DNA of 32,000 nt from Candidatus Saccharimonadota bacterium (GTDB lineage Bacteria > Patescibacteriota > Saccharimonadia > Saccharimonadales > Saccharimonadaceae). A model generated the notes under the pieces. It was given only the letters and a program-made list of their open reading frames with translations. It was not told the origin of the DNA and searched no databases. This document shows positions 1-21,850 of the stretch, piece after piece (position 1 is the first letter of the stretch; every line of letters starts with the position of its first letter). A program made the translations under genes and the position numbers. Location of the stretch: NCBI GenBank assembly GCA_001029695.1, contig CP011211.1, positions 180,001-212,000 of the forward strand, read 5' to 3'.

Positions 1-192
1 CTTACGGAGCGCCGAGTTTGGCTTCTTTGGTGTTTTTGTTGTTACCTTGATACAAACACCACGCTTAAGTGGACTTGTCTGCTCGTAGTAACGAACCTTT
101 AGTGCGTTATGGATACGACCAAGCGCAGGTGACTTCGACTTTTTCGCCGCAGTCTTGCGTGGCTTACGCACCAATTGATTGATTGTTGGCAT
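1..192 (-). CDS. rpsL: 30S ribosomal protein S12, first 64 codons (gene continues past the left edge)
   Basis: Not in the ORF track because it is truncated. The reverse complement of 1..192 translates to [64 protein letters not shown], the canonical S12 N-terminus. An AAGGGAG Shine-Dalgarno lies about 10 nt upstream of the ATG at 192..190. Confidence 0.93.
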
Positions 193-357
193 TGTTATGC
201 AACTCCCTTGGTAATTTAACATTCTTTATAGAGACAAGAAATCGTCTCTGGTACGAGTTGGATTCAGCAGCTCCGCCTCGTGTCATACTACAAAACTTTA
301 GTTCACGCGTACACATTCAATGCGTTTACTAATTTTCGTAGAGGAAACTCATCTGAC

Positions 358-386
358 AGTATAGCAAATTATTTGCTTTTTAACAA
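358..386 (-). promoter_or_regulatory. Putative sigma70-type promoter of rpsL (TTGTTA-17 nt-TATACT), implying a 5' UTR of about 160 nt
   Basis: On the minus strand, -35 TTGTTA is at 386..381, the spacer is exactly 17 nt, and -10 TATACT is at 363..358. The leader contains the hairpin AGAGAC-N8-GTCTCT. Confidence 0.5.
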
Positions 387-417
387 TAAGACTACGGCGA
401 TTATGCCGTAGTCTTAT
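386..417 (-). terminator. Perfect 13-bp stem-loop (ATAAGACTACGGC / GCCGTAGTCTTAT, 6-nt loop) ending the upstream cassette; abuts the rpsL -35
   Basis: The inverted repeat was read directly. The trailing T-tract on the minus strand is weak (ATTGTT), so termination efficiency is uncertain. Confidence 0.5.
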
Positions 418-424
418 AATCATT

Positions 425-497
425 CGAAAGTGAGCCTGCCAAAAGGAGCTCATGCTACGAATATCTCCATTCGTGAGCAGGCTCAACTTTCGGCAGG
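425..497 (-). repeat. Long imperfect inverted repeat / extended stem-loop just after the stop of the 112-aa ORF
   Basis: CGAAAGTGAGCCTGC (425..439) pairs with GCAGGCTCAACTTTCG (477..492), with a 1-nt bulge and a 37-nt loop. CCTGCC (435..440) can alternatively pair with GGCAGG (492..497). Confidence 0.45.
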
Positions 498-504
498 GTT
501 GTAC

Positions 505-843
505 TCATGCAGCAGGGTTTTTCAATCGATCACCAATTTGAGCGCTGATCTCCTCTATCTCTTGGCGCGCTGGTGAGTTTTCGGCGAGAATCTCATTGAA
601 ACTCCCAATAAGTGTCCTCGCGATGAACCTGTACTTTGCACATGTTGGCTGCTTTTCCGAATCACTACGGATCCTGTACAGCTCGTCATATACACCTCTT
701 GCGTCGTAAGCCATGAGTAATTCATGCAGCTTCTCGCCATGATGGCGATTGAAATCCTCGTGACGATCTAGTGCTTTACGTATTACATCGAACCAAGGTC
801 GATAAACACTACTCACCAGGTCCTGAGAAAATACTTTACTCAT
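505..843 (-). CDS. Hypothetical protein, 112 aa from ATG 843 (115 aa if GTG 852 is used); predicted all-helical; downstream gene of the two-gene cassette
   Basis: ORF-track entry 505..852. The GTG at 852 overlaps the upstream TGA (GTGA). An ATG at 843 lies 5 nt after that stop and is preceded by AGGGTGA. No family motif was recognised. Confidence 0.6.
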   Translation of the reverse strand: MSKVFSQDLVSSVYRPWFDVIRKALDRHEDFNRHHGEKLHELLMAYDARGVYDELYRIRSDSEKQPTCAKYRFIARTLIGSFNEILAENSPARQEIEEISAQIGDRLKNPAA

Positions 844-848
844 AAAGA

Positions 849-1043
849 TCACCCTGTTTCGATTGCACTCGTGTTCAAAGTTGGCTCGTCCGACTTTTCA
901 TTGTCGAGCAAGGCAAGAACACCAGTTGGTTGTATCACGGCAGCGTCGTAGCTATTGTTCGCCAAAGCCGCGCGAGTGAAGTGTCCTACAGTTACTTCGG
1001 TATCCGTCCTACTAAAAGGAGGGACCACTCTTCTGCATGACAT
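849..1043 (-). CDS. Hypothetical 64-aa protein with an acidic C-terminal tail; upstream gene of the cassette (antitoxin-like position)
   Basis: AAGGAG lies 5 nt upstream of ATG 1043. The stop overlaps or abuts the start of the next ORF. The sequence TEVTVGHFTRAALANNSYDAAVIQPTGVLALLDNEKSDEP weakly resembles the Phd/YefM pattern. Confidence 0.6.
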   Translation of the reverse strand: MSCRRVVPPFSRTDTEVTVGHFTRAALANNSYDAAVIQPTGVLALLDNEKSDEPTLNTSAIETG

Positions 1044-1094
1044 TACGTCTCCTTATGCTGAGTAGACATGTACTTACCTGTATGGTACCTTCTT

Positions 1095-1123
1095 ATAATA
1101 ACCCCTTGTACTTGCGGTTTCAA
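1095..1123 (-). promoter_or_regulatory. Near-consensus promoter of the cassette (TTGAAA-17 nt-TATTAT)
   Basis: On the minus strand, -35 is at 1123..1118, the spacer is 17 nt, and -10 is at 1100..1095, about 50 nt upstream of ATG 1043. Confidence 0.55.
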
Positions 1124-1221
1124 CCACTTTCATGGTTTTTGTAAGATTTCTTACTGCGAGACTCGTCGATATGATCGCCGAGCGGCTAACAATAAACCAG
1201 TCCGAGTAAACGACTACATCT

Positions 1222-1252
1222 AAAAAACACCCGCATCGAGCGGGTGTTTTTT
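1222..1252 (-). terminator. Rho-independent (bidirectional-type) terminator after rpoC
   Basis: AAAAAA-CACCCGC-ATCGA-GCGGGTG-TTTTTT, 16 nt after the rpoC stop (1268). Confidence 0.85.
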
Positions 1253-1267
1253 AGAAGAGTAAAAACT

Positions 1268-4200
1268 CTACTCTGCGATGTCGAGGATCTCTTCGACTTC
1301 AACTTCCGTAATAACTTCCTCAGGAGTATTAACAATCGCACCAGTTCCCACAGGGATCTTACGTCCGATGATAACATTCTCCTTGAGTCCGTGAAGACGG
1401 TCAGCGCGTCCACTTGTTGCTGCGCTAATCAAGACACGAGTCGTATCTTGGAATGACGCTGCAGAAAGCCAACTATCGCTCCAGATCGATACCTTCGTGA
1501 TACCGAGGAGTAGCTGCGTATACTGCACAAGTTCTTGGCCGCGTGCCGCGAGTTCTGCGTTTGCATCGACGACTGCAGCTTTTGATACGATATCGCCAGT
1601 TACAAACGTGCTCTCGCCTGGATCTTCCACCTGAACACGACTGAACATCTGTCGCACAATGATCTCAAGGTGCTTGTCAGCAACATCTTGACCCTGTGCC
1701 GCATAGATGCGCAGTACTTCGTTAATGATGTAACGTTGAGTCGCCTCAGTACCCTTAAGTCGCATGAGATCATGCAAGTTCAGTGATCCGATAGTGAGAC
1801 GATCACCCGCCTCAACCTGATCATTCGCTCGAACAACAAGTTGCGTGTTGCCTGGAATCTCGTAACGTACTGGTGCGCCTGCGTTTGCAGCAAGTACCAA
1901 TGTGTCTTCAGCAACCTCTACGACACCATCAAATGGCGCAACGAGCGGTCGAGCTTCACCTTCGCTTGATGCAAGAACGTCACCAACCTTTACATTACTT
2001 CCTGACTTCACGTTGATCGTACGGCCTTCAAGAGCAATTCGCTCAACATGGCCAGCTTCAGGTGTTACCTGGACGATGTACTTCTTGCCATCTTCCCAAA
2101 TATCAACCGTACCAGTTACTTCAGTGACAAACGCCTGACCCTTTGGTGAACGGGCTTCAAAGAGCTCTTCAACACGAGGGAGACCCTGTGTGATGTCTCC
2201 ACCAGCAACACCACCGGCGTGGAAGGTTCGAAGCGTTAGCTGTGTACCAGGCTCACCGACAGACTGTGCGGCGATAACACCAACCGGCTGTGCATTTGCA
2301 ACAAGACTACCAGTTGACATATCGATACCGTAGCTCTTCTTTGGAATACCACGAAGGTTCTTTGTAGAGAGTACAGATTGGATCTTTACTTCATCAATTG
2401 AGCTATCAGCTTCAATTGCTTCAGCTACACTCATCGTAATGAGCTCATCCTTCTTGATATGTGATCCCACATCTTCAGCTGTGAATCGTCCGTAAAGACG
2501 GTTCTTGAAGTCGATCATTGTCTCTTCAGTTTCAGCACGGCGAATAGCGAATCCTTCATCATCACCTTCTTCGTCTTCAACCGTAAAGACATCCTGAGAT
2601 ACATCGACAAGACGACGAGTCAGGTAGCCTGAGTCGGCAGTCTTAAGAGCGGTATCGATCAGACCCTTACGTGCACCACGTGTCGCCACGAATGATTCGA
2701 GTGATGAAAGCCCTGCTTTATAGCTTGAACGAATAGGAAGCTCAATCTCACGGTTTGCTGCATCCACCATGATTCCTACCATCGCAGAAGCAAGCTTCAC
2801 GTTTGAGATATCACCACGGGCACCTGAGTTCACCATGACACTAATGCTTGTATCCATGTTCTTGAGTTGATCTTGCAAGAACTCTGTTACCTTACGGTCA
2901 ACGCCACGCCATGACTGGACGGTCAAGTTGTACCGTTCGTCTTCTGTGATGAGACCTTGGTCGAATTGATCAGAGATCAACGCTGTCTTCTCGTCACCTT
3001 CAGAGACAAATTCACCAATTTCGTCAAAGTTAAGGTAGTCGTCTTTACCTGTCGATACAGCGGCGATTGTCGCAAATCGGAAGGCAAGACCCTTCATGCG
3101 GTCAGCGATCTTTGCTGTTTCCTCTGCATCATACTGGTTGAAAATCTTCGCAAGAACTTTCTTAAGCTGCTTCTTGTTCTGTACGCTATTGTCGTACGGA
3201 TAGTCTGCAGGAAGAATCTCGTTGAAGAAGACGCGTCCAAGTGTTGTATCGCGGATTTCACCCTTCGCAAATACACGAATTGGTGTCTGAAGCTGCAGTA
3301 CACCCTGGTCATATGCCATCTCAGCTTCGTAGACTGAGCTATATGCTTTCGTCTCTTTAGTCTGAGCACTTGGCTTTTCGTAGGTAAGGTAGTAATTACC
3401 AAGGACAACGTCCTGGCCGATATTGAGTACCGGAGCACCATCGGCAGGTTTAAGAAGGTTGTTTGTTGCACTCATGAGTTCGCGAGCTTCACGCTGCGCG
3501 TCGTCAGAAAGTGGCAAGTGAACAGCCATCTGGTCACCATCGTAGTCGGCGTTAAATCCGTTTGCTACGAGTGGGTGAAGTTGGATCGCCTTACCTTCAA
3601 CAAGTACCGGCTGGAATGCCTGAATTGAAAGACGGTGAAGTGACGGCGCACGGTTAAGAAGAACGTACTTACCTTCAATCACTGCGTCGAGTGCGTCCCA
3701 TACCAGTGTGTCGCCCGACTCGATAAGTCGAGTTGCAGAACGGATGTTGTGAGCATGCTCACCACGGATAAGCCAGCTAATGACGAATGGCTTGAATAGC
3801 TCAAGTGCCATTTGCTTTGGTAGACCACATTCAGAAATCTTTAGCTTTGGACCGACAACAATCACTGAACGTCCTGAGTAGTCGACACGTTTACCGAGAA
3901 GGTTCTGACGGAAACGTCCCTGCTTACCCTTGAGCATATCAGAGATTGACTTCAGGCGACGGCGGCCACCAGTTGCGTTAACTGCACGACCACCACGGGC
4001 TGCAGAGTTGTCAACAAGTGCATCAACAGCTTCTTGAAGCATACGCATCTCATTGCGACGGATTACTTCAGGGGCATTGAGGTCGATAAGCTTCTTAAGG
4101 CGATTATTACGGTTGATCACACGACGATAAAGGTCGTTAAGATCAGATGTCGCAAAACGGCCACCTGTAAGCTGTACCATTGGACGAAGATCCGGTGGAA

Positions 4201-5101
4201 TCACAGGAAGAACAGTAAGACATAGGCTGTTTGGACGGATGCCCGCTGCTTGCATACCCTCAAGTACCTTAAGGCGTTTGAGCAGCTTCTTCTCGCGCTG
4301 ACCCTTAGCACCTTCGACTTCTTCACCAAGCTGCTTGATGAGTGTTGGAAGGTCGATTGCATCAAGCATAGCTTTGATTGCCGTACCACCCATACCAACA
4401 GTTGCGAGCTCTTCGTACTCTTCAGGAAGATTGCGGTAGTCAGTTTCGTTAAGAAGTGCACCCTTTACGAGACTATCAAGCTGCGCTTTCTTTGTGTTGA
4501 AACTCTCATTGAGCTCTTCAACTTCTCGTGATTGAGCTGCAGCAAGTGCTTTTACGTCAGCACCTTCAGCTTCAGCTTCTTTTTCGTAGCGGATCTTGAT
4601 CGCCATGCGACCAGCTTCAGTCTCTGCTTCTAGATCAGCGAGGAATTGATCGCGCTTTTCAGTCTCTACATCAAGGATGATATAGCTTGCAAAGTATGCT
4701 ACGCGCTCGATATTTCGAACCGTAATACCAAGAAGCAAGCTCATCGCACTTGGCGTACCGCGCATAAACCAGATGTGTGCAACTGGAGCAGCGAGGTTGA
4801 TGTGTCCCATTCGCTCACGACGGACGATAGACTTAGTGACAAGCTCACCGTTCTTATCGATCGCTGCTTCACGAGAGCGGACGCCCTTAAGCTTACTGTC
4901 GTGTGGATTAATATCTTTCACTGGTCCGAAGATTCGTTCACAGAAAAGTCCATCACGCTCAGGCTTTTGAGTACGATAGTTGATTGTTTCTGGCTTAGTG
5001 ACTTCACCGTGACTCCACTTAAGCATGTCCTCTGGACTTGCTACGGCGAGACGTACAGCGTCAAAGTCAGCAATACCGGTGCCTGCAACAACTCGTGACA
5101 T
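1268..5101 (-). CDS. rpoC: DNA-directed RNA polymerase subunit beta-prime (1277 aa)
   Basis: Catalytic NADYDGDQMAVH is present, along with RRERMGHI, GYLTRRLVDV and AAQSVGEPGTQLTLRTFH blocks. The start is 1 nt after the rpoB stop, with GGAGGAGG upstream. Confidence 0.98.
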   Translation of the reverse strand: MSRVVAGTGIADFDAVRLAVASPEDMLKWSHGEVTKPETINYRTQKPERDGLFCERIFGPVKDINPHDSKLKGVRSREAAIDKNGELVTKSIVRRERMGHINLAAPVAHIWFMRGTPSAMSLLLGITVRNIERVAYFASYIILDVETEKRDQFLADLEAETEAGRMAIKIRYEKEAEAEGADVKALAAAQSREVEELNESFNTKKAQLDSLVKGALLNETDYRNLPEEYEELATVGMGGTAIKAMLDAIDLPTLIKQLGEEVEGAKGQREKKLLKRLKVLEGMQAAGIRPNSLCLTVLPVIPPDLRPMVQLTGGRFATSDLNDLYRRVINRNNRLKKLIDLNAPEVIRRNEMRMLQEAVDALVDNSAARGGRAVNATGGRRRLKSISDMLKGKQGRFRQNLLGKRVDYSGRSVIVVGPKLKISECGLPKQMALELFKPFVISWLIRGEHAHNIRSATRLIESGDTLVWDALDAVIEGKYVLLNRAPSLHRLSIQAFQPVLVEGKAIQLHPLVANGFNADYDGDQMAVHLPLSDDAQREARELMSATNNLLKPADGAPVLNIGQDVVLGNYYLTYEKPSAQTKETKAYSSVYEAEMAYDQGVLQLQTPIRVFAKGEIRDTTLGRVFFNEILPADYPYDNSVQNKKQLKKVLAKIFNQYDAEETAKIADRMKGLAFRFATIAAVSTGKDDYLNFDEIGEFVSEGDEKTALISDQFDQGLITEDERYNLTVQSWRGVDRKVTEFLQDQLKNMDTSISVMVNSGARGDISNVKLASAMVGIMVDAANREIELPIRSSYKAGLSSLESFVATRGARKGLIDTALKTADSGYLTRRLVDVSQDVFTVEDEEGDDEGFAIRRAETEETMIDFKNRLYGRFTAEDVGSHIKKDELITMSVAEAIEADSSIDEVKIQSVLSTKNLRGIPKKSYGIDMSTGSLVANAQPVGVIAAQSVGEPGTQLTLRTFHAGGVAGGDITQGLPRVEELFEARSPKGQAFVTEVTGTVDIWEDGKKYIVQVTPEAGHVERIALEGRTINVKSGSNVKVGDVLASSEGEARPLVAPFDGVVEVAEDTLVLAANAGAPVRYEIPGNTQLVVRANDQVEAGDRLTIGSLNLHDLMRLKGTEATQRYIINEVLRIYAAQGQDVADKHLEIIVRQMFSRVQVEDPGESTFVTGDIVSKAAVVDANAELAARGQELVQYTQLLLGITKVSIWSDSWLSAASFQDTTRVLISAATSGRADRLHGLKENVIIGRKIPVGTGAIVNTPEEVITEVEVEEILDIAE

Positions 5102-5102
5102 A

Positions 5103-8100
5103 TTACACCTCCTCCTTAATTTCTTCTACTTCATCAATATCTTGAATACTCATTCCATCTTCAATGTCACCGAACTCGTCAGCTTCATCGAGAACTGTCT
5201 CTTCGTCGTCTGAACTTGGTACCATTGGCACTGACTTATCAGCTGGACCACTTTCGGCGATGATTTCTTCAGCATCAATCACAGCATCTTCTGACTCATC
5301 AAGAAGATCAACACGAAGACCAAGCCCCTGAAGCTCCTTCACGAGTACGTTGAATGATTCTGGAAGTTTCGGTCCAACAATCGCTTCGTTCTTAATGATT
5401 GATTCGTACGCCTTTGCACGACCATATACATCATCAGACTTGATAGTAAGCATTTCTTGAAGTGTCGTGGCAGCGCCATAAGCTTCAAGTGCCCATACTT
5501 CCATTTCTCCGAATCGCTGTCCACCATTTTGCGCTTTACCGCCAAGTGGCTGCTGAGTCACCATCGTGTATGGACCAGTCGAGCGAGCGTGAATCTTATC
5601 GCTCACCATGTGGTGAAGCTTAATAATATGCATCACACCAACAGTCGTACGTTCTTCAAATGGCTCACCAGTTCGTCCGTCAAAGAGCTGGCTCTTTCCG
5701 TCACGTGCATAACCGGCTTTTTCAAGCTCAGAGCTAATCGTCTCATCAGTCACACCGTTAAATGGTGGGGTTGCAACCTTGTAGCCAAGTGCTCGCGCCG
5801 CCATACCGAGGTGTGTTTCAAAGAGCTGACCAATATTCATACGGCTTGGAACACCAAGTGGGTTCAAGACAACATCTACTGGAGTACCGTCTTCCATAAA
5901 TGGCATATCCTCGATTGGGAGAATACGGGCCACAACACCCTTGTTACCGTGACGACCCGCAAGCTTGTCTCCAACAGAGATTTTACGAAGCTGTGCAACG
6001 AAAATCTGGATCTGCATAAGTACGCCAGCTTTTAGTTCATGACCATTCTCACGTGAGAAGATCTTTACGCCGACAACTTTACCACCACCAGCGTTATTCA
6101 TACGCTGAGAGGTATCGCGAACGTCTTTAGCCTTCTCGCCGAAGATCGCGCGAAGGAGTCGCTCCTCAGAACTGAGCTCTTGCTCACCCTTTGGTGTAAT
6201 TTTACCGACAAGCACATCGCCAGCTTTTACTTCAGAACCAATTTGAACGATACCGTTCTCATCAAGGTGACGAAGTGATTCTTCACTAACGTTTGGAATG
6301 TCACGTGTGACAATCTCTGGACCTAGCTTCGTCTCACGAACTTCTACATTGTAGTCCTTGATGTTGATGCTTGTGAGGGCATCCTCTTTGACGATACGAT
6401 CAGAAAGAACGATCGCGTCATCCATGTTGTAACCACCCCAAGGCATAAATGCCACAGTAAGGTCACGACCAAGTGCAAGTTCACCGTCAGCAACAGATGC
6501 ACCTTCGATAAGAATATCGCCAGCTTTCACCTTCTGACCACGTGTAACACATACTTTTTGGTTGATTGAGCGATCATCGTTACTCTTCGTAAAGTGGATC
6601 GGCTCGTAAATCTTTACACCATCAGAGTACTTTACATGTACTTCGTCAGCATCAGCACGAACAACTTCACCGTCACCTTCGGCAACAACAAGCTGACTTG
6701 TGTTGCGAGCAACTTCTGCTTCAATACCCGTTCCAACAGTTGGAGACTCAGGGGTAATAAGCGGCACTGCCTGTCGTTGCATGTTTGAACCCGTAAGTGA
6801 ACGGTCAACACGGTTTTTCTCAATAAATGGCACGAGAGATGCAGTAGAACCAAGAATTTGCTTATGAGCAGCATCAAGGTACGTTACTTCGCTAGCATCA
6901 ACCTGCTCAGGGAGCAGACCGTTACGAGCACTGACGCGCTCAGCAGCAAATGAACCATCATCGTTCAAAGCAGCACCGGCATCAGCGATCACTTCAACGA
7001 TCTCTTGACTTGCGTCAAGATAGACAATCTCATCAGTCACTTTACTGTCTTTTACCTTGAGGTAAGGAGTTTCAATAAAGCCGTATTCATTGACACGAGC
7101 ATAGGTTGCAAGGTTGAGTACAAGTCCAATGTTCGCACCTTCAGGTGTCTCAACAGAACAAAGACGACCGTAGTGAGTTGGGTGCGCATCACGCACGTCA
7201 AATCCAGCGCGCTCACGTGAAAGTCCTCCAGGACCCATTGAGCTAAGGCGTCGTTTGTGTGAAAGTTCAGCAAGTGGGTTTGTCCCATCCATAAGCTGTG
7301 AAAGCTGTGAACTTGCAAAGAATTCGCGAACCGCTGCAACAACTGGACGAGCATTGATAAGCTGTCCCGGCGTTACATTCTCGAGGTCGCTCATGCTCAT
7401 ACGATCCATAGCATTTCGTTGCATACGAAGCATACCAACACGGAACTGACGAGCAACAAGCTCACCAACAAGCTTCACACGACGATTCGAAAGTGCATCG
7501 ATATCATCTGGAAGTTCCTGTGTGTTGTTGAGACGGATAATCTCTTTGATGATTGCGATAAGGTCGCTCATCTGGAAGACACGGTTTTCAGTCGTGTTGG
7601 CAACTTCCAGGTTGAGGCGCTGGTTGAGCTTATAGCGACCGACGCGACTATAGTCAAATCGCTTGAAATCAAAGAACATCTTCTCGATCATGCCACGAGC
7701 ATTCTCTACTGTCGCAAGATCGCCTGGACGAAGACGACGGTACACTTCGATAAGTGCTTCGTTTGAACCGCGTGCTGGATCTTTTTCAAGTGTTGCGTCG
7801 ATGTACTTCACATCACCCGTGTCAACGTCTTCAAAAATACTTTTGATTTCGCTCGTCTTGTTGTGGCCAAGAGCGCGAAGAAGCGTTGTGACAGGAAGTT
7901 TGCGTCGACGATCGATCTTGACGAAGATCGCACCGTTGCTTGCAGTCTCAAACTCAAGCCATGCACCACGGCCAGGGATAAGTTTCGCGCCGTAGTTATT
8001 ACGACCAGCAGCGCTATCAGCTGTAAAGAATACACCCGAGCTACGAATAAGTTGAGATACAACAACACGCTCTGTACCGTTAATGATAAATGTACCGCGG

Positions 8101-8456
8101 TCAGTCATCCATGGATAATCACCAAGGTAAATCTCTTGCTCTTTTACTTCACCAGTTACTTTGTTTGTTAGCTCAACGTTTACGTGAAGCGGCGCATCAA
8201 AAGTAAGGTTATTTTCCTTTGTGTCGACTTCTGTAACTTTTGGATCCTGGAACGCATATTCCTTGAATCGAAGTTCAAGCTTTTGGCCTGTGTAATCCTC
8301 GATAGGATTTAGTTCTGAAAAGATCTCGCTCAAGCCAGTCTCGACGAATTCACGCCAGCTGTCTTTTTGGTGAGCGATGAGATTTGGTAGTGGTAATGCA
8401 GTGTCGTCCTTTGTGAAAAAGACACGCTTACCAGCATTAGGCTTGGTATTTGCCAT
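5103..8456 (-). CDS. rpoB: DNA-directed RNA polymerase subunit beta (1117 aa from ATG 8456)
   Basis: Conserved blocks NMQRQAVPL, GRHGNKGVV and PSRMNIGQ are present. GAGGAG lies 5 nt upstream of ATG 8456, so the track start at 8471 is probably a 5-codon over-extension. Confidence 0.97.
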   Translation of the reverse strand: MANTKPNAGKRVFFTKDDTALPLPNLIAHQKDSWREFVETGLSEIFSELNPIEDYTGQKLELRFKEYAFQDPKVTEVDTKENNLTFDAPLHVNVELTNKVTGEVKEQEIYLGDYPWMTDRGTFIINGTERVVVSQLIRSSGVFFTADSAAGRNNYGAKLIPGRGAWLEFETASNGAIFVKIDRRRKLPVTTLLRALGHNKTSEIKSIFEDVDTGDVKYIDATLEKDPARGSNEALIEVYRRLRPGDLATVENARGMIEKMFFDFKRFDYSRVGRYKLNQRLNLEVANTTENRVFQMSDLIAIIKEIIRLNNTQELPDDIDALSNRRVKLVGELVARQFRVGMLRMQRNAMDRMSMSDLENVTPGQLINARPVVAAVREFFASSQLSQLMDGTNPLAELSHKRRLSSMGPGGLSRERAGFDVRDAHPTHYGRLCSVETPEGANIGLVLNLATYARVNEYGFIETPYLKVKDSKVTDEIVYLDASQEIVEVIADAGAALNDDGSFAAERVSARNGLLPEQVDASEVTYLDAAHKQILGSTASLVPFIEKNRVDRSLTGSNMQRQAVPLITPESPTVGTGIEAEVARNTSQLVVAEGDGEVVRADADEVHVKYSDGVKIYEPIHFTKSNDDRSINQKVCVTRGQKVKAGDILIEGASVADGELALGRDLTVAFMPWGGYNMDDAIVLSDRIVKEDALTSINIKDYNVEVRETKLGPEIVTRDIPNVSEESLRHLDENGIVQIGSEVKAGDVLVGKITPKGEQELSSEERLLRAIFGEKAKDVRDTSQRMNNAGGGKVVGVKIFSRENGHELKAGVLMQIQIFVAQLRKISVGDKLAGRHGNKGVVARILPIEDMPFMEDGTPVDVVLNPLGVPSRMNIGQLFETHLGMAARALGYKVATPPFNGVTDETISSELEKAGYARDGKSQLFDGRTGEPFEERTTVGVMHIIKLHHMVSDKIHARSTGPYTMVTQQPLGGKAQNGGQRFGEMEVWALEAYGAATTLQEMLTIKSDDVYGRAKAYESIIKNEAIVGPKLPESFNVLVKELQGLGLRVDLLDESEDAVIDAEEIIAESGPADKSVPMVPSSDDEETVLDEADEFGDIEDGMSIQDIDEVEEIKEEV

Positions 8457-8482
8457 CTGTACTCCTCGCATGAGTTAAATAT

Positions 8483-8511
8483 TTAGTGAATTGGCCACGA
8501 AGATTCACTAA
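8483..8511 (-). promoter_or_regulatory. 9-bp stem-loop in the rpoB leader (TTAGTGAAT-N11-ATTCACTAA)
   Basis: Perfect inverted repeat about 27 nt upstream of the rpoB start. Function unknown. Confidence 0.3.
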
Positions 8512-8644
8512 GCTTGGCACGTCCCACCCCTGTTGCCGACAGAAAAGAGACACACTGTACCAAACTACACTACTTCTTAGTATCAACTATGCATCAAAGA
8601 GGAAAAATAATCAAGAGATTAAAAGAGGGATTTATAATGAAAAC

Positions 8645-9457
8645 CTATGACTTCGTTACTATTCCCCACAAAAGTGCGGCAATCACCGCAAAAATGCCAA
8701 AAACGATAGTATAGATTCGGTTCCTTGAACGTAACGACATGATAATCGTAAAGATACTGCTTACGATAATTAGTCCATAGAACGGCACAATTACAGGCAA
8801 CAATACTAGCGATCCACCCCCAAACCAAAACTGAGGGTCAGAAAGCGCAGCTATCGCTGGAGGAACAAGCAGCGCGACAGTAACGCTCCCAAGGAGTATT
8901 TGAGCTGACAAATGATGGTCAAGCTCATCAGCCGCATCGTCCCAAAAATAATATGATACAAGCATACTCATAGCTAACGCTATGGCACCAGTACTGGCTA
9001 TCACAAACGTTGAATAAAAGATCACCGTCACCCATGCCATCGAGTCCCCGCCTAGTAGCATGCAAACATACAATACAAGGGACACAATACCAAATGGCAA
9101 TATACATTTCCTGACAGTAGCATGCATCCTCTCGGCGATGGTTATATCGCCGTAGTGCATCAAAGGAGGTGCTTCAGCCTTTACCACAGGGTTTAACACT
9201 TTTTTAAAGTCCGCGCTCGCTCTGAGGACGAGAGCGCAAAATGTAAACGGTAACACAAATAGGCCTATAGTCATGATTCCGAATGCAAGCTCGGGCAATT
9301 GCCTGCCACCTAAATGCTCCATGTATAGAGACACGCCAGGAATAATCAAGAAAAAAACCAGTAAGATAATATTCAGCCAACAATAGAACTTGAACATCTT
9401 CGAGTATACTCTGACAGCCGGCTTTATATCTGTTTCATTTTTTAGTGTTGTCTGCAT
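8645..9457 (-). CDS. Hypothetical polytopic membrane protein (about 270 aa)
   Basis: ORF 8645..9496 contains many hydrophobic segments. The annotated TTG start is actually the -35 box of a strong promoter, so ATG 9457 (or 9466) is the likelier start. Confidence 0.7.
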   Translation of the reverse strand: MQTTLKNETDIKPAVRVYSKMFKFYCWLNIILLVFFLIIPGVSLYMEHLGGRQLPELAFGIMTIGLFVLPFTFCALVLRASADFKKVLNPVVKAEAPPLMHYGDITIAERMHATVRKCILPFGIVSLVLYVCMLLGGDSMAWVTVIFYSTFVIASTGAIALAMSMLVSYYFWDDAADELDHHLSAQILLGSVTVALLVPPAIAALSDPQFWFGGGSLVLLPVIVPFYGLIIVSSIFTIIMSLRSRNRIYTIVFGIFAVIAALLWGIVTKS

Positions 9458-9467
9458 TACTAACATG

Positions 9468-9496
9468 ATTATAGTATGAGGCTCTGTGGTCGTCAA
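9468..9496 (-). promoter_or_regulatory. Strong promoter TTGACG-17 nt-TATAAT for the 270-aa membrane protein gene; very short or no leader
   Basis: -35 is at 9496..9491, the spacer is 17 nt, and -10 is at 9473..9468. ATGs lie at 9466 and 9457, i.e. 2 and 11 nt after the -10. Confidence 0.55.
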
Positions 9497-9500
9497 AGAA

Positions 9501-9519
9501 AAGGTAGCAGCTCCACCTT
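9501..9519 (-). terminator. Small stem-loop plus U-rich tract after the 200-aa membrane protein gene
   Basis: On the minus strand, AAGGUGG-AGCUG-CUACCUU is followed by UUCUUUG; it overlaps the TAA stop. Confidence 0.35.
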
Positions 9520-10120
9520 ATATAAGATAAAGCATCAGAGCAAATATACATACATAGATAATAATTATAGCAAGCGTAATACGCCAAACTTTACGAAACC
9601 ACTTATCGTTCAGCCTCGCTGCCCAAATAAACAGTACAAAAAACAATAAGACATACAGCGGCGTTGTAAATAAAAATACTGGATACAGTAAAGCAGCAAG
9701 ACCAATCCCGCTAGGAATAAATGTAGCACCTACTACGAGGAGTTGGGTCCACATCGTTACGCCTATAACGAGGGGTGGCAATATAAGCACAAGCCAAAGA
9801 ATAAACCACTTACGTTGCTCGGTAAATGGCAACGTCAGTCCTCGTTGTATGCCGAATTTTGCAGCCGTAGCCAGTAACATAGCTCCGCTAAAAACAGCTA
9901 CACATATGGAAACTAGCAGTAGTACTCCTATCGTTTTTTTTACGAGCGAGGCATCGATATCGCTTGGCTCAGGCACAAGAATCACCAGCACAACAAAGGC
10001 TATCAATGAAATGAAAAATAACCGTCGCCACTTACGTGCCGTAACGTCGTGCTCTTTTGCCTCTATATCCCCGGAGCCCTCTAGTTGCTTATGTAAATCA
10101 TCATTCATTCCATAGATCAT
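9518..10120 (-). CDS. Hypothetical membrane protein (200 aa, about 5-6 TM segments)
   Basis: Long ORF with a charged N-terminus followed by repeated hydrophobic stretches. No family recognised. Confidence 0.7.
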   Translation of the reverse strand: MIYGMNDDLHKQLEGSGDIEAKEHDVTARKWRRLFFISLIAFVVLVILVPEPSDIDASLVKKTIGVLLLVSICVAVFSGAMLLATAAKFGIQRGLTLPFTEQRKWFILWLVLILPPLVIGVTMWTQLLVVGATFIPSGIGLAALLYPVFLFTTPLYVLLFFVLFIWAARLNDKWFRKVWRITLAIIIIYVCIFALMLYLI

Positions 10121-10156
10121 AGCATATTACTATGGCCTGTAAGAGCGTACTGTATG

Positions 10157-10750
10157 CTACGCTTTCGTAATCACCTCATCAACGAGTCCATACTTCACCG
10201 CTTCTTCTGCACTCATCCAGAAATCACGGTCAGCATCTTTTTCGATCTTTGAGATTTTTTGACCAGTATTTTTAGCGAGAATTTCGTTGAGCTTTTGCTT
10301 CAAGAATAGTCCTTCACGAAGTGTAATCTCTTGATCAGTAATCTTACCTTGCGTACCACTGCTAGGCTGATGGATCATGATTCGACTATTTGGTAATGCG
10401 AATCTCTTACCCTTCGTGCCACTCGAGAGCAAGAACGCACCCATACTTGCCTGAAGTCCAATGCCGATCGTTTGAACATCAGGACCGATATACTGGATTG
10501 TATCGTAAATCGCAAGGCCATCATATACACTTCCACCCGGGCTATTGATATACAGTTTAATATCTTTCTTGTTGTCAGCATATGCCAGGTGAAGCAGCTG
10601 CGCCACGACAACATTTGCAGTATGCTCGTTGACATCTTCTCCTAGAAAAATGATTCGTTCGTTGAGTAATCGCGAGTAAATATCAAAAGCACGCTCACCA
10701 TCGTGGGTTTTCTCGATAACCGTTGGAACAAGATAACTTTTTGGACTCAT
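10157..10750 (-). CDS. clpP: ATP-dependent Clp protease proteolytic subunit
   Basis: The Ser-His-Asp context is present ([22 protein letters not shown]). AAGGAGAATAGT precedes ATG 10750, so the track start at 10786 is likely over-extended. Confidence 0.95.
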
Positions 10751-10797
10751 ACTATTCTCCTTTGTCTGGCTGTGATATATCACCAATTATTATATCT

Positions 10798-10826
10798 AGT
10801 ATAGCGCGGATTAGCACTCGTTACAA
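10798..10826 (-). promoter_or_regulatory. clpP promoter TTGTAA-17 nt-TATACT
   Basis: -35 at 10826..10821 lies in the CIRCE spacer, and -10 is at 10803..10798. The 5' UTR of about 40 nt contains the perfect palindrome GTGATATATCAC (10772..10783). Confidence 0.55.
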
Positions 10827-10837
10827 GTGAGTGCTAA
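10811..10837. promoter_or_regulatory. CIRCE element (HrcA operator): TTAGCACTC-N9-GAGTGCTAA
   Basis: Exact match to the CIRCE consensus inverted repeat with a 9-nt spacer. It overlaps the -35 and spacer of the clpP promoter. Confidence 0.85.
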
Positions 10838-10848
10838 TTATCATTTAT

Positions 10849-10877
10849 TTGCGCCTGTTCGATTACCATATTATAAT
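10849..10877 (+). promoter_or_regulatory. Promoter TTGCGC-17 nt-TATAAT for the 94-aa ORF
   Basis: -35 is at 10849..10854 and -10 at 10872..10877. GAGG lies 5 nt before ATG 10916. Confidence 0.5.
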
Positions 10878-10915
10878 AATAGTATGCTCATTCACATCTA
10901 CCGAAAGAGGTTACG

Positions 10916-11200
10916 ATGGAACATAACAACCCTAACCCCGACGATCTTTCTCTTGCGGCCTCCCGACTACTGATACTGAGTGCTGGTATCATAGTAGCTT
11001 TACTGTACTGCAAAGCTCTGGACGCAATCAGTCGGTTTGCTCCTGGACTCTCCGCGGCTATAACCGGTAGCCTGGTAGTGATTGTACTTGTTGGCATTTT
11101 GTATCGACTCCTTCGACGCCCTGCTCGAAGTGAAGACAGTCACGACCCTGCACTTCAGGCTAAATTCCTATCAATAGTAGAGAGGACCGAAGAACCGTAG
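10916..11200 (+). CDS. Hypothetical small membrane protein (94 aa, 2 TM segments)
   Basis: Has its own promoter, Shine-Dalgarno and terminator. Two hydrophobic helices are followed by a charged tail. Confidence 0.55.
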   Translation: MEHNNPNPDDLSLAASRLLILSAGIIVALLYCKALDAISRFAPGLSAAITGSLVVIVLVGILYRLLRRPARSEDSHDPALQAKFLSIVERTEEP

Positions 11201-11243
11201 AATGAGCAATTGTCCGTCTGACTACCTCAGATAATAGGACTAC

Positions 11244-11277
11244 TGGCCGCTACCCTTAAAAAGGAGCGGCCATTTTC
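11244..11277 (+). terminator. Terminator of the 94-aa ORF
   Basis: TGGCCGCT-N13-AGCGGCCA followed by TTTTCA. Confidence 0.6.
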
Positions 11278-11304
11278 ATATTCACCAAAAACGTATATCA
11301 ATAA

Positions 11305-11334
11305 AATACCCACCCAATAACCCGGGTGGGTATT
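11305..11334 (-). terminator. Terminator of the 97-aa ORF
   Basis: AATACCCACCC-N8-GGGTGGGTATT; on the minus strand it is followed by TTATTG. Confidence 0.6.
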
Positions 11335-11347
11335 TGGGTGGGTGAGG

Positions 11348-11641
11348 TCATAAAAGCCCTGAATCATCATCTATCGGTAGATGATGAAACCGACGCGTAA
11401 CTGATCGAGCTAGCCAAGAGTCGTAGCAGCGTCGACAAAAAACCATTAAAAGAAAGACTCCAATCAGATACACAAACAGAGCAAATGGCAGCACTATGCC
11501 AGTCGTAGCCTGTCTACCGATCGACATGATTACAACCATAGCTCCAGCCCACCAAATCAATGCGATCGCCAACCAAATCGTCCCCTTGTCATGAGACTTG
11601 ATCTTCGCTTCACTCCAACGAGTACGTTCTTCAGCTTTCAT
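11348..11641 (-). CDS. Hypothetical small membrane protein (97 aa, 2 TM segments)
   Basis: ORF with two Trp-rich and Leu-rich hydrophobic segments. A terminator lies downstream. The Shine-Dalgarno is weak. Confidence 0.5.
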   Translation of the reverse strand: MKAEERTRWSEAKIKSHDKGTIWLAIALIWWAGAMVVIMSIGRQATTGIVLPFALFVYLIGVFLLMVFCRRCYDSWLARSVTRRFHHLPIDDDSGLL

Positions 11642-11695
11642 AGTAATGTGCTCACTTCCTCATGGAAAGTCTTGAATGACACTACTACATTACAA

Positions 11696-11732
11696 TAAAA
11701 TCTACCTCAATGCAATGCATCGAGGTAGATTA
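11696..11732 (-). terminator. Rho-independent terminator of tig
   Basis: AATCTACCTC-loop-GAGGTAGATT followed by TTTATTG on the minus strand. Confidence 0.75.
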
Positions 11733-11753
11733 GCTCTGTTCATCAACTAGCGT

Positions 11754-13034
11754 CTATTTAACGTTTAGTTCGAGAAGCAGGTCAATTGTTTTATCAGTGA
11801 GTAGTCGGTTTGCGATATCGCGCTGAACTTCTGGAGCAGTAAAATCTTGCCCAGACTTTTGGCCGAATTGCGCTTGATACTCATTGATCTTTTCAGCGAG
11901 CTCTTCGTCAGTTGCTGTCACCTTCTCCACCTTTGAAAGTTCCGCTAGTACTAGACCAGCTTTGACACGGTTTTCCGCCGCTGGCTTTACTTCTTTAGCA
12001 ATCCAGTCTTCGCGATCCTTGAAGTCTTTACTTTCAAGATACATATCGAGAGTCATACCCTGGTAGCCAAGATTTTGAATCATGTCTTGTTCGATCGACT
12101 TAATTTGATCTTCAACCAAAATCTCCGGAACCGGCACCGTACTTGCCTCGACAAGCTTTGTCACGAGTTCATCTTTTAGGGTGCTCTCTGCTTCACGTTC
12201 TTTTTGAGTAGTAATTTCGCGCTTAATATCTGCTTTTAGCTCATCGGCTGAGGTAAATGGACCAGCTTTTGCTGCAAGCTCGTCGTTCAATTCCGGAAGA
12301 ACAACTTCTTTTACTTCCTTGAGCGTCGTCGTAAACACAACTGGCGCGCCAGCAAGATCTTTTACGTGGTACTCTTTTGGAAATTTCAGATCGATATCAA
12401 ATGTCTCACCTGCTTTTTTACCGACAATAGCTTCTTCGAAGCCAGGAATAAACTGCTTTGAACCAAGTTTCAGTGTGTAGTCATTTCCTGTGCCACCATC
12501 AAATGCAACGTCATCTTTCTTACCTACAAAGTCGAGGATAGTCTCATCACCATCTTTTGCCGCACGCTCTACCGTCTTTCGTTCGGCAAAGCCTTGCTGA
12601 ATCCGCTCGATGATTTCGTCAACGTCTTTAGCAGCTACAGTAACTTTCGGTTTTTTGACTGATAACTTCTTATAATCGCCAAGTGTCACCTTTGGAAGAA
12701 TCTCCGACTCAGCGGTAAACTCTAGTTCTTTACCAGGAACAAACTTCTTCACTTCAACAGCTGGTCGGTCAAGTGCCTGAATCTTTTCAGATACAAATGC
12801 CTCAGAAACAGCTTTAGAAAGCGCGTCATCAAGAGTCTGCTGACCAAGTGCGCTAGGGTCAACATGTTTCATAGCAACACTTACAGGGACTTTTCCAGCA
12901 CGGAAGCCAGGTACTTTCATGTTTTTTGCAAGTTTAGTGAGCGCCACTTGCTCGGCGTCTTGAAGTTCTTTTGCTCCCAATGTGATTGTGAGCTCAACTT
13001 TTGTGTCGGATAGGTTTTTTACAGTCGTCTTCAT
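11754..13034 (-). CDS. tig: Trigger factor (426 aa)
   Basis: The N-terminal ribosome-binding signature VPGFRAGKVP is present, and the length and domain order are typical of trigger factor. Confidence 0.93.
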   Translation of the reverse strand: MKTTVKNLSDTKVELTITLGAKELQDAEQVALTKLAKNMKVPGFRAGKVPVSVAMKHVDPSALGQQTLDDALSKAVSEAFVSEKIQALDRPAVEVKKFVPGKELEFTAESEILPKVTLGDYKKLSVKKPKVTVAAKDVDEIIERIQQGFAERKTVERAAKDGDETILDFVGKKDDVAFDGGTGNDYTLKLGSKQFIPGFEEAIVGKKAGETFDIDLKFPKEYHVKDLAGAPVVFTTTLKEVKEVVLPELNDELAAKAGPFTSADELKADIKREITTQKEREAESTLKDELVTKLVEASTVPVPEILVEDQIKSIEQDMIQNLGYQGMTLDMYLESKDFKDREDWIAKEVKPAAENRVKAGLVLAELSKVEKVTATDEELAEKINEYQAQFGQKSGQDFTAPEVQRDIANRLLTDKTIDLLLELNVK

Positions 13035-13089
13035 ACTCGACCTATAATAACAGATACGAGTAGAAAGTTCGACCCTTTAGGAGTGCCTG

Positions 13090-14439: not shown

Positions 14440-14483
14440 AGTAGCATTTTTCTCCTTATTCCGCAAGGGTAAGCGGTATGCAT

Positions 14484-14518
14484 AAAAAATAACCAGCCGC
14501 TGAATGCGACTGGTTATT
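14484..14518 (-). terminator. Rho-independent terminator of the surface-protein gene
   Basis: AATAACCAG...CTGGTTATT stem followed by a run of six T on the minus strand. Confidence 0.8.
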
Positions 14519-14535
14519 AATATTAGTAAAGATAT

Positions 14536-15885
14536 TTACTTACCGAGCAATGTTGCGAGAAGATCGCGTCGTGAAGCTAAATAGTATGATGATGCAGTAA
14601 TGATACTTGCAAGACCAAATCCGCCCATTAGGAGCTCACCTGGACCAGTTTGTGGAAGCGCAGCTGGAGTAACTGGCGCCTTACAGTCAGGACTATTCTT
14701 TGGAAGTGAGCTGTCGTATGGACACTCTGCGCAATCAGGGCTATCTTTTGGAAGTGCAGGATTTGTTGGGCAAGGTGTTGCAGTAATCTTTGCCTGGCAC
14801 TTTGTGTCTTTCACTTCACCATTTACGTCAAACTTGAGTGTTGCCACAATCGTATAGTCACGAACTTCTGTGTACGTATGACTGACGGTTGTACCAGTGA
14901 TTGTCTCGCTCGTGCCATCACCAAAGTCAACGGTCGCACCTTTGTATGCGGCATTTTTTTCAGTCTTACGGATAGTAAAATCGTATGTTTTGCCGCTACG
15001 CTTAACGACATCGAGCGCAGTACACGCATAGTCTGCAGCAGGCTGTTCAATCACGACCTGAGCTTGACACTTGTCGCCAGGAACTTCAACAACTTTTCCG
15101 TCAACCTTCACCTTAACAATCGATTTAACAGTGTAATTTCCTGCTTTTGCATAGGTATAGTCAATCGTACTTGAAGTGCTATCCTTAGGGGCTGTACCAT
15201 CACCAAAATCAATTCGGTATCCCACGATTTCCGCACCGCCTGAAGCACGTGCATCAATCTTGAATCGACGACTGAATGTACCTGTCTGCTGAGCAGAAAG
15301 AAGATCGCATGTATATGCAGGAGTTGGCTTCGGTGGGGTTGGAGGAGTTGGTGTTGCGTAGATGGGATTACCACAGCCACTAATCACTGCATACTTGAAG
15401 TTACCTTGTGCATCCAGTGCGACCATGGTTGGAAGTCCATCAGTAACAAATGCAGCGCTGTTTGGAGTTTCATAGTATGTCTTACCGGCAATGCTAATTG
15501 GACGGCTACCAGGGATTGGTTGGCGACCAATACTCTTAGCATTTGTCGCAACAACTTTTCCATTGACGCGAACCGTGCCGTCCTTAAACGATTGACCCTG
15601 AACAACCTGTAGATCTTTCGGGATCCAGTAATGACCGTAGATAGCAGGAAGGTCACCAGGAGCATTTGCTTCGAACTTTTGTTTAAACTCACCAGCATTC
15701 TCAGCACCACAATACATAATCGCATTGTTATCACAATCACGAACGATCGCGGCTTGCGCTTCAACTTGGTTAAGAATACCAAGTACACCAAAAATCCCCA
15801 TGCCAAGTGCAAAAATGCCGCCGACAATAAGGTGGTTAGATTTCATATACCTGAACTGGTTTAAAACGCTTCGTAAGCCTCGCAT
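14536..15885 (-). CDS. Sortase-anchored (LPXTG) surface protein with two PKD-like repeats
   Basis: An N-terminal signal/TM segment is present (HLIVGGIFALGMGIFGVLGIL...AQA). Two roughly 90-aa repeats each contain DFGDGT. A TPTPPTPPKPTP linker is present. LPQTG (14644..14658) is followed by a hydrophobic stretch and RRD. AAGGAG precedes ATG 15885. Confidence 0.85.
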   Translation of the reverse strand: MRGLRSVLNQFRYMKSNHLIVGGIFALGMGIFGVLGILNQVEAQAAIVRDCDNNAIMYCGAENAGEFKQKFEANAPGDLPAIYGHYWIPKDLQVVQGQSFKDGTVRVNGKVVATNAKSIGRQPIPGSRPISIAGKTYYETPNSAAFVTDGLPTMVALDAQGNFKYAVISGCGNPIYATPTPPTPPKPTPAYTCDLLSAQQTGTFSRRFKIDARASGGAEIVGYRIDFGDGTAPKDSTSSTIDYTYAKAGNYTVKSIVKVKVDGKVVEVPGDKCQAQVVIEQPAADYACTALDVVKRSGKTYDFTIRKTEKNAAYKGATVDFGDGTSETITGTTVSHTYTEVRDYTIVATLKFDVNGEVKDTKCQAKITATPCPTNPALPKDSPDCAECPYDSSLPKNSPDCKAPVTPAALPQTGPGELLMGGFGLASIITASSYYLASRRDLLATLLGK

Positions 15886-16012
15886 GCTTCACTCCTTCTC
15901 CGTTAGTTTTGATCTATCGTCGCTCCACCAACGATAATATACAACTTTTCTTAGCTCAATTTTCCCACATATTTGATAAAGCGTCAATATCTATCTTATA
16001 AAATGCTGTATA

Positions 16013-17676: not shown

Positions 17677-18420
17677 ATGAGCGCTATTTTTGATTCAAGA
17701 AAAAAAGGTTTTACAATCGTCGAATTGCTAATTGTCATTGCTGTCATCGGCATACTCGCTGCCATCACTATGGTTGCGTACAGCTCCGTTCAAAACAATG
17801 CAAAATCAAAGGATATACTATCGACTGCCGCACAATGGGAAGCCCTCATACGGCTACAGTACTCGGAGACAGGCAAAATTCCTCTCTCAGACAGAGAGAC
17901 TACAGGCACCGATCTAATTCCAACATGCCTCGGGAGGCCAACAGACTTCCCAGCTACAAGTGACTTCCAAGAGAAACAGTGCATTACCGCCTATACAGAC
18001 GGCCATGTAGGCGTAGAATATTCCCAAAGTATTATGGATCAATTTTCCACAATCAATAATTCTAATATGCCAAAGACACCGCCCTACTCTACCGTGACTG
18101 GCCGTGGGAATGGCCGAGGGATCGGTTATTCAGCACAAAAAGGCTGGGAAGCCGGAGTTGGTGAGACCGATGAAGTTCATGTACGACTCTACTGGTTAAA
18201 CCCGTCCAAAGGCAGCTGCGGCACGGGTGACGGAGAGGATCGAAGCGTGAGCGAAGAAGAGAAAACTATGATGCGAGATGCTATTGTCGAGATGCAAGCC
18301 GCGCTCGATGACCCATCGATGCCCGAGGAAGATCGCGCAAGCTACCAAGCGAGCATTAGTTACCTTAACTGGATCCTGAACGGAAAAGATGAACTCTGTA
18401 CGCTAAAATTTACCCTCTAA
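17677..18420 (+). CDS. Type IV pilin-like protein (prepilin-type N-terminal cleavage/methylation domain)
   Basis: N-terminus MSAIFDSRKKG|FTIVELLIVIAVIGILAAI has the class III signal, with Gly at -1, Phe at +1 and Glu at +5. The C-terminal globular part contains 4 Cys. Confidence 0.85.
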   Translation: MSAIFDSRKKGFTIVELLIVIAVIGILAAITMVAYSSVQNNAKSKDILSTAAQWEALIRLQYSETGKIPLSDRETTGTDLIPTCLGRPTDFPATSDFQEKQCITAYTDGHVGVEYSQSIMDQFSTINNSNMPKTPPYSTVTGRGNGRGIGYSAQKGWEAGVGETDEVHVRLYWLNPSKGSCGTGDGEDRSVSEEEKTMMRDAIVEMQAALDDPSMPEEDRASYQASISYLNWILNGKDELCTLKFTL

Positions 18421-21717: not shown

Positions 21718-21802
21718 GCGCGAGTGGTGGAATTGGTAGACACGCTAGCCTTAGGAGCTAGTGCCTTCGGGCGTGAAGGTTCAAGTCCTTTCTCGCGTAC
21801 CA
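21718..21802 (+). tRNA. tRNA-Leu (anticodon UAG), CCA encoded
   Basis: Acceptor GCGCGAG, anticodon stem CTAGC/GCTAG with loop CTTAGGA, long variable arm, T-arm GAAGGTTCAAGTCCTTT, and 3' ACCA. Confidence 0.95.
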
Positions 21803-21841
21803 TAGAAAAAACCTGGTGTTATGCCAGGTTTTTTCTATGGT
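21799..21841 (+). terminator. Perfect 18-bp terminator stem that includes the tRNA ACCA end
   Basis: ACCATAGAAAAAACCTGG (21799..21816), a 7-nt loop, then CCAGGTTTTTTCTATGGT (21824..21841). Confidence 0.8.
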
Positions 21842-21850
21842 GAAATTATT

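Follow-up and report, generated by a model that had tools for sequence, protein, structure and literature searches.

RpoC, the β′ subunit of RNA polymerase, lacks all eight cysteine ligands of its two zinc sites in a Candidatus Saccharimonadota bacterium. The gene lies in the stretch of 32,000 nucleotides analysed here, which we call the window (assembly GCA_001029695.1, contig CP011211.1, positions 180,001 to 212,000). We consider it likely that both Zn(Cys)4 sites, the N-terminal Zn1 and the second site Zn2, were replaced by metal-free packing in a functional β′ subunit, that this happened in the ancestor of the clade that contains the Saccharibacteria, and that the two protein modules and their roles were retained. 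From the sequence, it is reasonable to infer that this RNA polymerase is zinc-independent at both sites. A search of the literature on Saccharibacteria, Patescibacteria or the candidate phyla radiation (CPR) combined with RNA polymerase and zinc or cysteine yielded no report of a β′ subunit that is free of zinc ligands, and a 2024 survey of the domain architecture of β and β′ covers insertions in the CPR and does not mention zinc (PMC11515920). The Cys-less β′ subunit is real, extends through the clade and has apparently not been described before, and it represents a change within a very well-known enzyme rather than a new system.

The zinc-ligand positions of RpoC

The rpoC gene of the window is intact and not a pseudogene, as the original prediction had maintained. 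The protein scores 1415.4 bits with the equivalog model TIGR02386 (cutoff 963.5 bits), it carries the five Rpb1 domains PF04997, PF00623, PF04983, PF05000 and PF04998 in the canonical order and all above their cutoffs, and its top PDB matches are bacterial β′ subunits (E = 0). The gene is located directly downstream of rpoB on the same strand, with a gap of one base between the rpoB stop and the rpoC start, and 28 blocks of the public collection, the NCBI assembly GCA_015999845.1 among them, encode a protein identical to the window RpoC. As judged from the sequence, this is a functional-looking rpoC of a bacterium of the Saccharibacteria (TM7, Patescibacteria).

The protein contains exactly three Cys residues, C54 (in LFCERIF), C294 (in NSLCLTV) and C425 (in ISECGLP). 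The ligands of E. coli RpoC were confirmed on its sequence as C70, C72, C85 and C88 for Zn1 and C814, C888, C895 and C898 for Zn2. In a MAFFT alignment with the E. coli protein, the window RpoC has P, D, I, N, E, T, P and S at these eight positions, and a pairwise local alignment agrees on the residues. With HMMER, the Zn1 region aligns without any gap to three solved β′ sequences, the four Cys of which fall on P66, D68, I81 and N84. The Cys count and the HMMER and MAFFT alignments thus bear out the claim that RpoC has three Cys and none of the eight ligands. The 30-residue Zn1 segment had been placed exactly, in its coordinates as well as in its ligand-position residues, and the alignments, which place no Cys of the window RpoC at any ligand position and have no gap at Zn1, reveal no shift in the manual alignment behind that claim. 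For Zn2, the Glu codon at the C814 position and the T, P and S at the other three were correct as well; the span of "about 2318..2392" was slightly too wide, since the motif SVLSTKNLRGIPKKSYG occupies nucleotides 2327..2377 of the minus strand.

Of the remaining Cys residues, C54 and C425 correspond to C58 and C366 of E. coli, which do not bind zinc as ligands and are conserved throughout bacteria. Since these two have been kept and all eight ligands are gone, the loss was aimed at the ligands and does not reflect a blanket purge of Cys. A general avoidance of Cys as the sole cause of the loss is rejected for the same reason.

Distribution of the loss

In the databases, the nearest proteins and genome loci bear the names Saccharibacteria, Saccharimonadales, Nanosynbacter or Nanosyncoccus, and the original guess of Patescibacteria was correct. 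All eight Cys are absent in 200 out of 200 close relatives, i. e. 120 proteins with at least 88% identity and 80 species-representative genomes with 68-89% identity, and their consensus reads P-D-V/I-N for Zn1 and x-T-P-S for Zn2. The Zn1 Cys are also absent from 118 further N-terminal fragments, and those of Zn2 from 70 further C-terminal fragments. Because the pattern recurs in all these sequences, the loss is the result of neither chance nor error.

For a wider survey, residues 1-1000 were compared with 1.84 billion representatives of clusters at 50% identity, and the eight positions were read in the best 150 of 6,559 strong hits. Among these 150 clusters, only the four nearest lack both sites: P0121 (67% identity), P0122 (56%), P0123 (54%) and P0124 (51%). 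From P0125 (50% identity) onward, nearly all of the surveyed clusters (about 140) have four Cys at Zn1 and four at Zn2, and the named clusters that keep both sites include Peribacteria, "Patescibacteria group", Parcubacteria/Paceibacterota and Dehalococcoidia. No loss of Zn1 outside the Cys-less clade was found among the best 150 of the 6,559 strong hits. In a neighbour-joining tree built from 1007 columns after the zinc sites had been masked, the query and P0121 to P0124 form one exclusive clade, all members of which are Cys-less. The sister of this clade is P0174 (Parcubacteria/Paceibacterota), and other CPR clusters including Peribacteria come next; all of these have the complete set of eight Cys. 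Moreover, P0122 to P0124 have derived motifs in common with the Saccharibacteria, DINP[HF]...REAAVD at Zn1 and SVLS..GIP.KSYG at Zn2, and the gene order on the P0124 contig, recG-rsmD-hisS-tig-clpP-rpoB-rpoC, is that of the window. The simplest reading of these sequence data is that each site was lost once, on the stem of the clade that contains the Saccharibacteria. The loss that had been noticed in the window is therefore real, but it is not peculiar to this genome, since the whole Saccharibacteria clade and three deeper lineages (51-56% identity) share it as an ancestral trait.

The Cys that precedes the catalytic loop is near-universal (E. coli C454) and is replaced in the window RpoC by A513 (codon 3563..3565, minus strand), so that HPLVC has become HPLVA. 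Ala is also present in P0121, and Cys is present in P0122 to P0124 and in all compared sequences that bear zinc sites.

The two sites differ in how often they have been lost. Four clusters outside the clade, P0170, P0183, P0184 and P0213, have an intact Zn1 and have lost all four Zn2 Cys, as was checked by eye in the alignments. The best PDB match of P0170 is proteobacteria-like and that of P0213 actinobacteria-like, and the four appear to be independent losses in unrelated lineages. This indicates that loss of Zn2 is sporadic and recurrent and that Zn2 has been dispensable more than once. As to how common such losses are, the loss of Zn1 and the double loss look clade-specific among the best 150 clusters, whereas at least four unrelated clusters have lost Zn2 and kept Zn1.

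Several sequences from the survey deserve a comment of their own. In Mycoplasma phocoenae (P0234), an apparent partial loss of Zn1 ("CCCE") was rejected as an effect of the alignment: the four Cys are kept with altered spacing, CPIC ... CIRTELC (CxxC...Cx5C), as compared to the usual CxC ... CxxC. The homolog search for P0124 was made with two fragments. Among its top matches, the Cys-bearing P0296 and P0385 were rejected as misassembled proteobacterial fragments; in both, conserved segments are duplicated in tandem within the fragment, which is probably an assembly error, and the extra copies raised the scores and hence the rank of the two. The rpoB gene on the P0124 contig is called as two overlapping open reading frames of 447 and 717 aa (L082 6525..9981), either because of a frameshift or assembly error or because the gene is really split. 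Finally, Cys-less RpoC sequences of the Saccharibacteria type have been deposited as "Chloroflexi bacterium", "Dongiaceae bacterium", "Candidatus Binatia", "Microbacteriaceae bacterium" and "Candidatus Kaiserbacteria" (P0005, L018, P0370, P0461 and P0487); these are probably mis-binned contigs.

Fate of the two zinc modules

The Zn1 segment is better conserved than the rest of the protein. Its mean column entropy across 81 species is 0.30 bits as compared to 0.75 bits for the whole protein, and there are no insertions or deletions in more than 300 sequences. R75, R77, D82, K83, G85 and T89 are invariant in the 81 species, and the same six residues are invariant in an alignment of 119 sequences. 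The basic residues K70, K72, R75, R77 and K83 align with K74, K76, K79, R81 and K87 of E. coli. This pattern in the sequences indicates that the segment is under strong purifying selection, and the conservation together with the exact length argues for a module that is still in use rather than for a decaying remnant. The Zn2 region is more variable (1.0 bits); the position of C814 is free, and the other three ligand positions have a conserved T, P and S, respectively. An AlphaFold2 model of Zn2, made from an input alignment of Cys-less sequences only, has predicted local distance difference test (pLDDT) values of 80-94 over residues 840-939, and Foldseek matches it to solved β′ subunits (E = 1e-20). 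Structure prediction, which had been suggested as a check, thus returned a confident β′-like Zn2 region, and for Zn1 it returned only the low values discussed below.

How might the two modules do without zinc? We suggest that the ligands were replaced on the stem of the clade that contains the Saccharibacteria, and that the replacements were inherited by all sampled descendants. The Zn1 domain was not deleted, as it has kept its length of 30 residues, the knuckle glycine G85 and the five basic residues, and it is most likely still the same small module that lines the RNA exit channel. In place of the metal, side-chain packing, hydrogen bonds or salt bridges involving P66, D68, V/I81, N/E84 and their neighbours may hold it together. 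The Zn2 subdomain, with its conserved T913, P920 and S923 and its free first position, would likewise fold without a metal. The route may have been the one taken by the zinc-free ("C-minus") zinc-ribbon ribosomal proteins.

Some points weigh against this interpretation: (i) In the AlphaFold2 model of residues 1-420, the clamp and its helical insertion are good, but residues 40-100, which include Zn1, reach a pLDDT of only 38-55. (ii) The conserved residues H67, D68, E78 and D82 could in principle bind a different metal. (iii) Lineages more distant than the best 150 clusters could lack Zn1 as well.

The poor model of Zn1 would be expected if the segment were a degenerate, largely unfolded remnant, the roles of which in termination, antitermination and the docking of factors had been lost or moved elsewhere, so that the RNA polymerase behaves differently at terminators. 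King and colleagues reportedly found in 2004 that mutants of the E. coli zinc-binding domain are altered in intrinsic termination and antitermination, which would also fit a degenerate Zn1. However, the poor values extend to the universally conserved flanks (residues 1-17 and 42-63), which are ordered in every solved RNA polymerase structure. The low confidence at Zn1 is therefore probably due to the missing β/β′ context rather than to the loss of Cys. In both models, the global root-mean-square deviation from β′ in Foldseek is 17-21 Å because the isolated fragments pack wrongly. Moreover, a remnant is hard to reconcile with a segment that is more conserved than the average of the protein, that has no insertions or deletions and that keeps five basic residues at their E. 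coli positions. The terminator-like sites of the window also speak, if weakly, against altered termination. A consensus scan for hairpins followed by a U run found 24 terminator-like sites in window positions 1-16000 as compared to 13.0 ± 3.2 expected, and several of these sites are located just after gene ends, including those of rpoC, tig and a gene for a PKD-domain protein. In the second half of the window the enrichment is weak (20 sites versus 15.5 ± 3.4). These sequence patterns mildly suggest that ordinary intrinsic termination is still in use, and the proposal of an altered termination or antitermination behaviour finds no support in a window in which terminator-like sites are over-represented in one half and one of them follows the rpoC stop by 26 nucleotides. 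All in all, we regard a degenerate Zn1 as unlikely.

It is also quite improbable that Zn1 still binds a metal through ligands other than Cys, e. g. H67, D68, E78, D82 and possibly N/E84, so that the site would have been remodelled rather than lost. What makes this idea attractive is that His is present at position 67 in 78 of the 81 species and Asp at position 68 in 80 of them, that E78 and D82 are invariant, and that all four residues lie at or next to former ligand positions. Yet three species have Tyr at position 67, P0124 has Phe there and Ser at position 68, and position 84 can be N, E, S, K or Q. The acidic residue D82 has its counterpart in E86 of E. coli, and is thus ancestral and no new ligand. 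Nor are there metal ligands at Zn2, where the Cys have given way to T, P and S and, at one position, to a residue that varies freely. No set of four ligands is conserved across the Cys-less clade, and this is why a remodelled metal site is unlikely. An artefact, i. e. misalignment, an error in sequencing or assembly, or a pseudogene, is practically out of the question and was ruled out, since we found no point in its favour and the Zn1 alignment is gap-free, MAFFT and the pairwise local alignment are concordant, the identical protein is found in the 28 blocks mentioned above, the open reading frame is uninterrupted and above the curated family cutoff, and hundreds of independent assemblies of relatives share the Cys-less pattern.

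The replacement of both zinc sites by metal-free packing may have been fixed because it saves zinc or cysteine in a reduced epibiont, because it confers resistance to oxidants, or by drift. As to the suggested adaptation to metal limitation, the one related datum is the low Cys content of the window proteins (0.53%).

Neighbouring features and comparison with known systems

The coordinates of the features are listed in the table. The other genes of the window have ordinary housekeeping functions (clpP, tig, hisS, recG, tyrS, a phosphoglucomutase gene, rsmD and two tRNA-Leu genes). With a Cys content of 0.53%, the window proteins are poor in this residue, and it is absent from five of the 22 that were listed. 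Among the larger proteins there are two exceptions, both probably extracellular: one has a PKD domain and 11 Cys, and the other, which is pilin-like and carries an N-terminal methylation motif, has four. The clamp of RpoC contains a helical insertion: HMMER alignments to β′ of Firmicutes and E. coli break at residues 145-211 and those to mycobacterial β′ are continuous. In the AlphaFold2 model, the insertion consists of two long helices (residues 147-176 and 183-209; pLDDT about 83-92), and the best fold matches of the model of residues 1-420 are mycobacterial β′ subunits. Such a clamp insertion is known from Actinobacteria, Chloroflexi and the CPR (PMC11515920).

The interval between rpoC and rpsL differs between two assemblies that encode an identical RpoC (L083 13835..14909 and L084 13835..18864). 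In one of them, it contains two small hypothetical open reading frames, as in window positions 1..1267, and in the other there are about 4 kb extra, including genes for a LysM protein and a protein of 579 residues. This interval looks like a variable island beside the core operon. Elsewhere in the window, positions 21798..21842 of the plus strand form an inverted repeat that has internal A6 and T6 runs and a stem of 20 bp (the scan accepted G-T pairs). It starts at the 3′ end of tRNA-Leu(tag), between this tRNA gene and the convergent rsmD, and may be a bidirectional terminator.

Table. Features of the rpoBC region and the two exceptions to the low Cys content, in window coordinates
Feature	Position	Strand	Evidence or conservation
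rpoC, RNA polymerase β′ subunit, 1277 aa	1268..5101	minus	open reading frame, TIGR02386, Pfam
rpoB, RNA polymerase β subunit, 1122 aa	5103..8471	minus	NF001616, 1491 bits (cutoff 896)
Zn1-equivalent segment INPHDSKLKGVRSREAAIDKNGELVTKSIV, aa 64-93, 30 aa (as in E. coli), no Cys	4823..4912	minus	
P66 codon (E. coli C70 position)	4904..4906	minus	Pro in 79/81 species
D68 codon (E. coli C72 position)	4898..4900	minus	Asp in 80/81 species
I81 codon (E. coli C85 position)	4859..4861	minus	Val in 71/81, Ile in 10/81 species
N84 codon (E. coli C88 position), variable	4850..4852	minus	Asn 62, Glu 17, Ser 1, Lys 1 of 81 species
Helical insertion in the clamp, lineage-specific, ~65 aa, about aa 146-210	4472..4666	minus	HMMER, AlphaFold2
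Catalytic Mg-binding motif NADYDGDQMAVH (NADFDGD-type), aa 517-528, intact	3518..3553	minus	
Zn2-equivalent region, aa 841-925 (VEDEEGD ... SVLSTKNLRGIPKKSYG), no Cys	2327..2581	minus	
E845 codon (E. coli C814 position)	2567..2569	minus	freely varying in relatives (A, E, V, I, D, S, P, T, others)
T913 codon (E. coli C888 position)	2363..2365	minus	alignment
P920 codon (E. coli C895 position)	2342..2344	minus	Pro in nearly all relatives
S923 codon (E. coli C898 position)	2333..2335	minus	Ser in most relatives, Ala in some
Terminator-like hairpin, 6-bp stem (1242..1228) then TTTTTT, 26 nt after the rpoC stop	1218..1242	minus	pattern match only
PKD-domain protein, 11 Cys	14536..15885	minus	
Pilin-like protein, 4 Cys	17677..18420	plus	

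The zinc sites of β′ have been treated as fixed features of bacteria, and a whole clade that is devoid of both is a natural experiment: it separates those functions of the modules that need the metal from those that need only the fold. To our knowledge, the N-terminal zinc site is conserved in bacteria, archaea and eukaryotes. It is tempting to speculate that the Saccharibacteria and their closest deep relatives have the only known cellular multisubunit RNA polymerase without structural zinc in its largest subunit, including the loss of Zn1, and that this is adaptive for an ultra-small epibiont, either by saving zinc or cysteine or by protecting against oxidants that strip Cys4 sites of their zinc, and that regulators dock differently at the RNA exit channel; we consider this far-reaching version less likely than not. 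Biochemical tests are feasible, since co-culture with the host is now possible for some Saccharibacteria. The Cys-less β′ may also serve as a metal-free scaffold for structural work, and the combination of DINPHD...REAAVDK and GIP.KSYG is a sequence marker of Saccharibacteria-type rpoC in metagenomes and mis-binned genomes and a possible flag for contamination.

In current reviews, RpoC counts as an important zinc-dependent protein: four Cys residues hold its Zn(II) firmly, and the protein accumulates in inclusion bodies if the import of zinc is impaired (PMC12632275). Its zinc-binding domain lines the RNA exit channel and touches antiterminators such as the phage Q protein (PMC6606751). The window RpoC resembles the canonical β′ subunits of E. 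coli, Thermus, Mycobacterium and Bacillus, with their two Zn(Cys)4 sites, in its family, its domain order, its catalytic motif and the position of its gene after rpoB. The Zn1 segment is as long as that of E. coli and has eight residues identical to it, including K74, K76, R81, K87 and G89 of the E. coli protein, and the helical insertion in the clamp is common to the window RpoC and mycobacterial β′. In contrast, the canonical subunits have the eight Cys ligands where the window RpoC has P, D, I and N as well as E, T, P and S, and C454 of E. coli is Ala here. The β′ subunits that have lost only Zn2 (P0170, P0183, P0184 and P0213) are similar in that all four Zn2 Cys are replaced in an otherwise intact β′; they differ by their intact set of four Zn1 Cys and by belonging to other parts of the family, and none of them shows the double loss. 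The closest parallel is provided by the C-minus forms of the ribosomal proteins L31, L33, L36, S14 and S18 and by DksA2. Here too, the four Cys have been lost from a small ribbon-like module, and the length of this module and presumably its place in a large machine have been kept. The zinc-independent paralogs of the ribosomal proteins have been described (PMC5912738, PMC6094098), as has DksA2 (PMC11672702). However, these proteins are usually second, Zur-regulated copies beside the zinc form that are induced upon zinc starvation, whereas the Cys-less β′ of the Saccharibacteria appears, in a genome view of 32 kb plus about 9 kb of flanks, to be the sole and constitutive copy, fixed throughout the clade.

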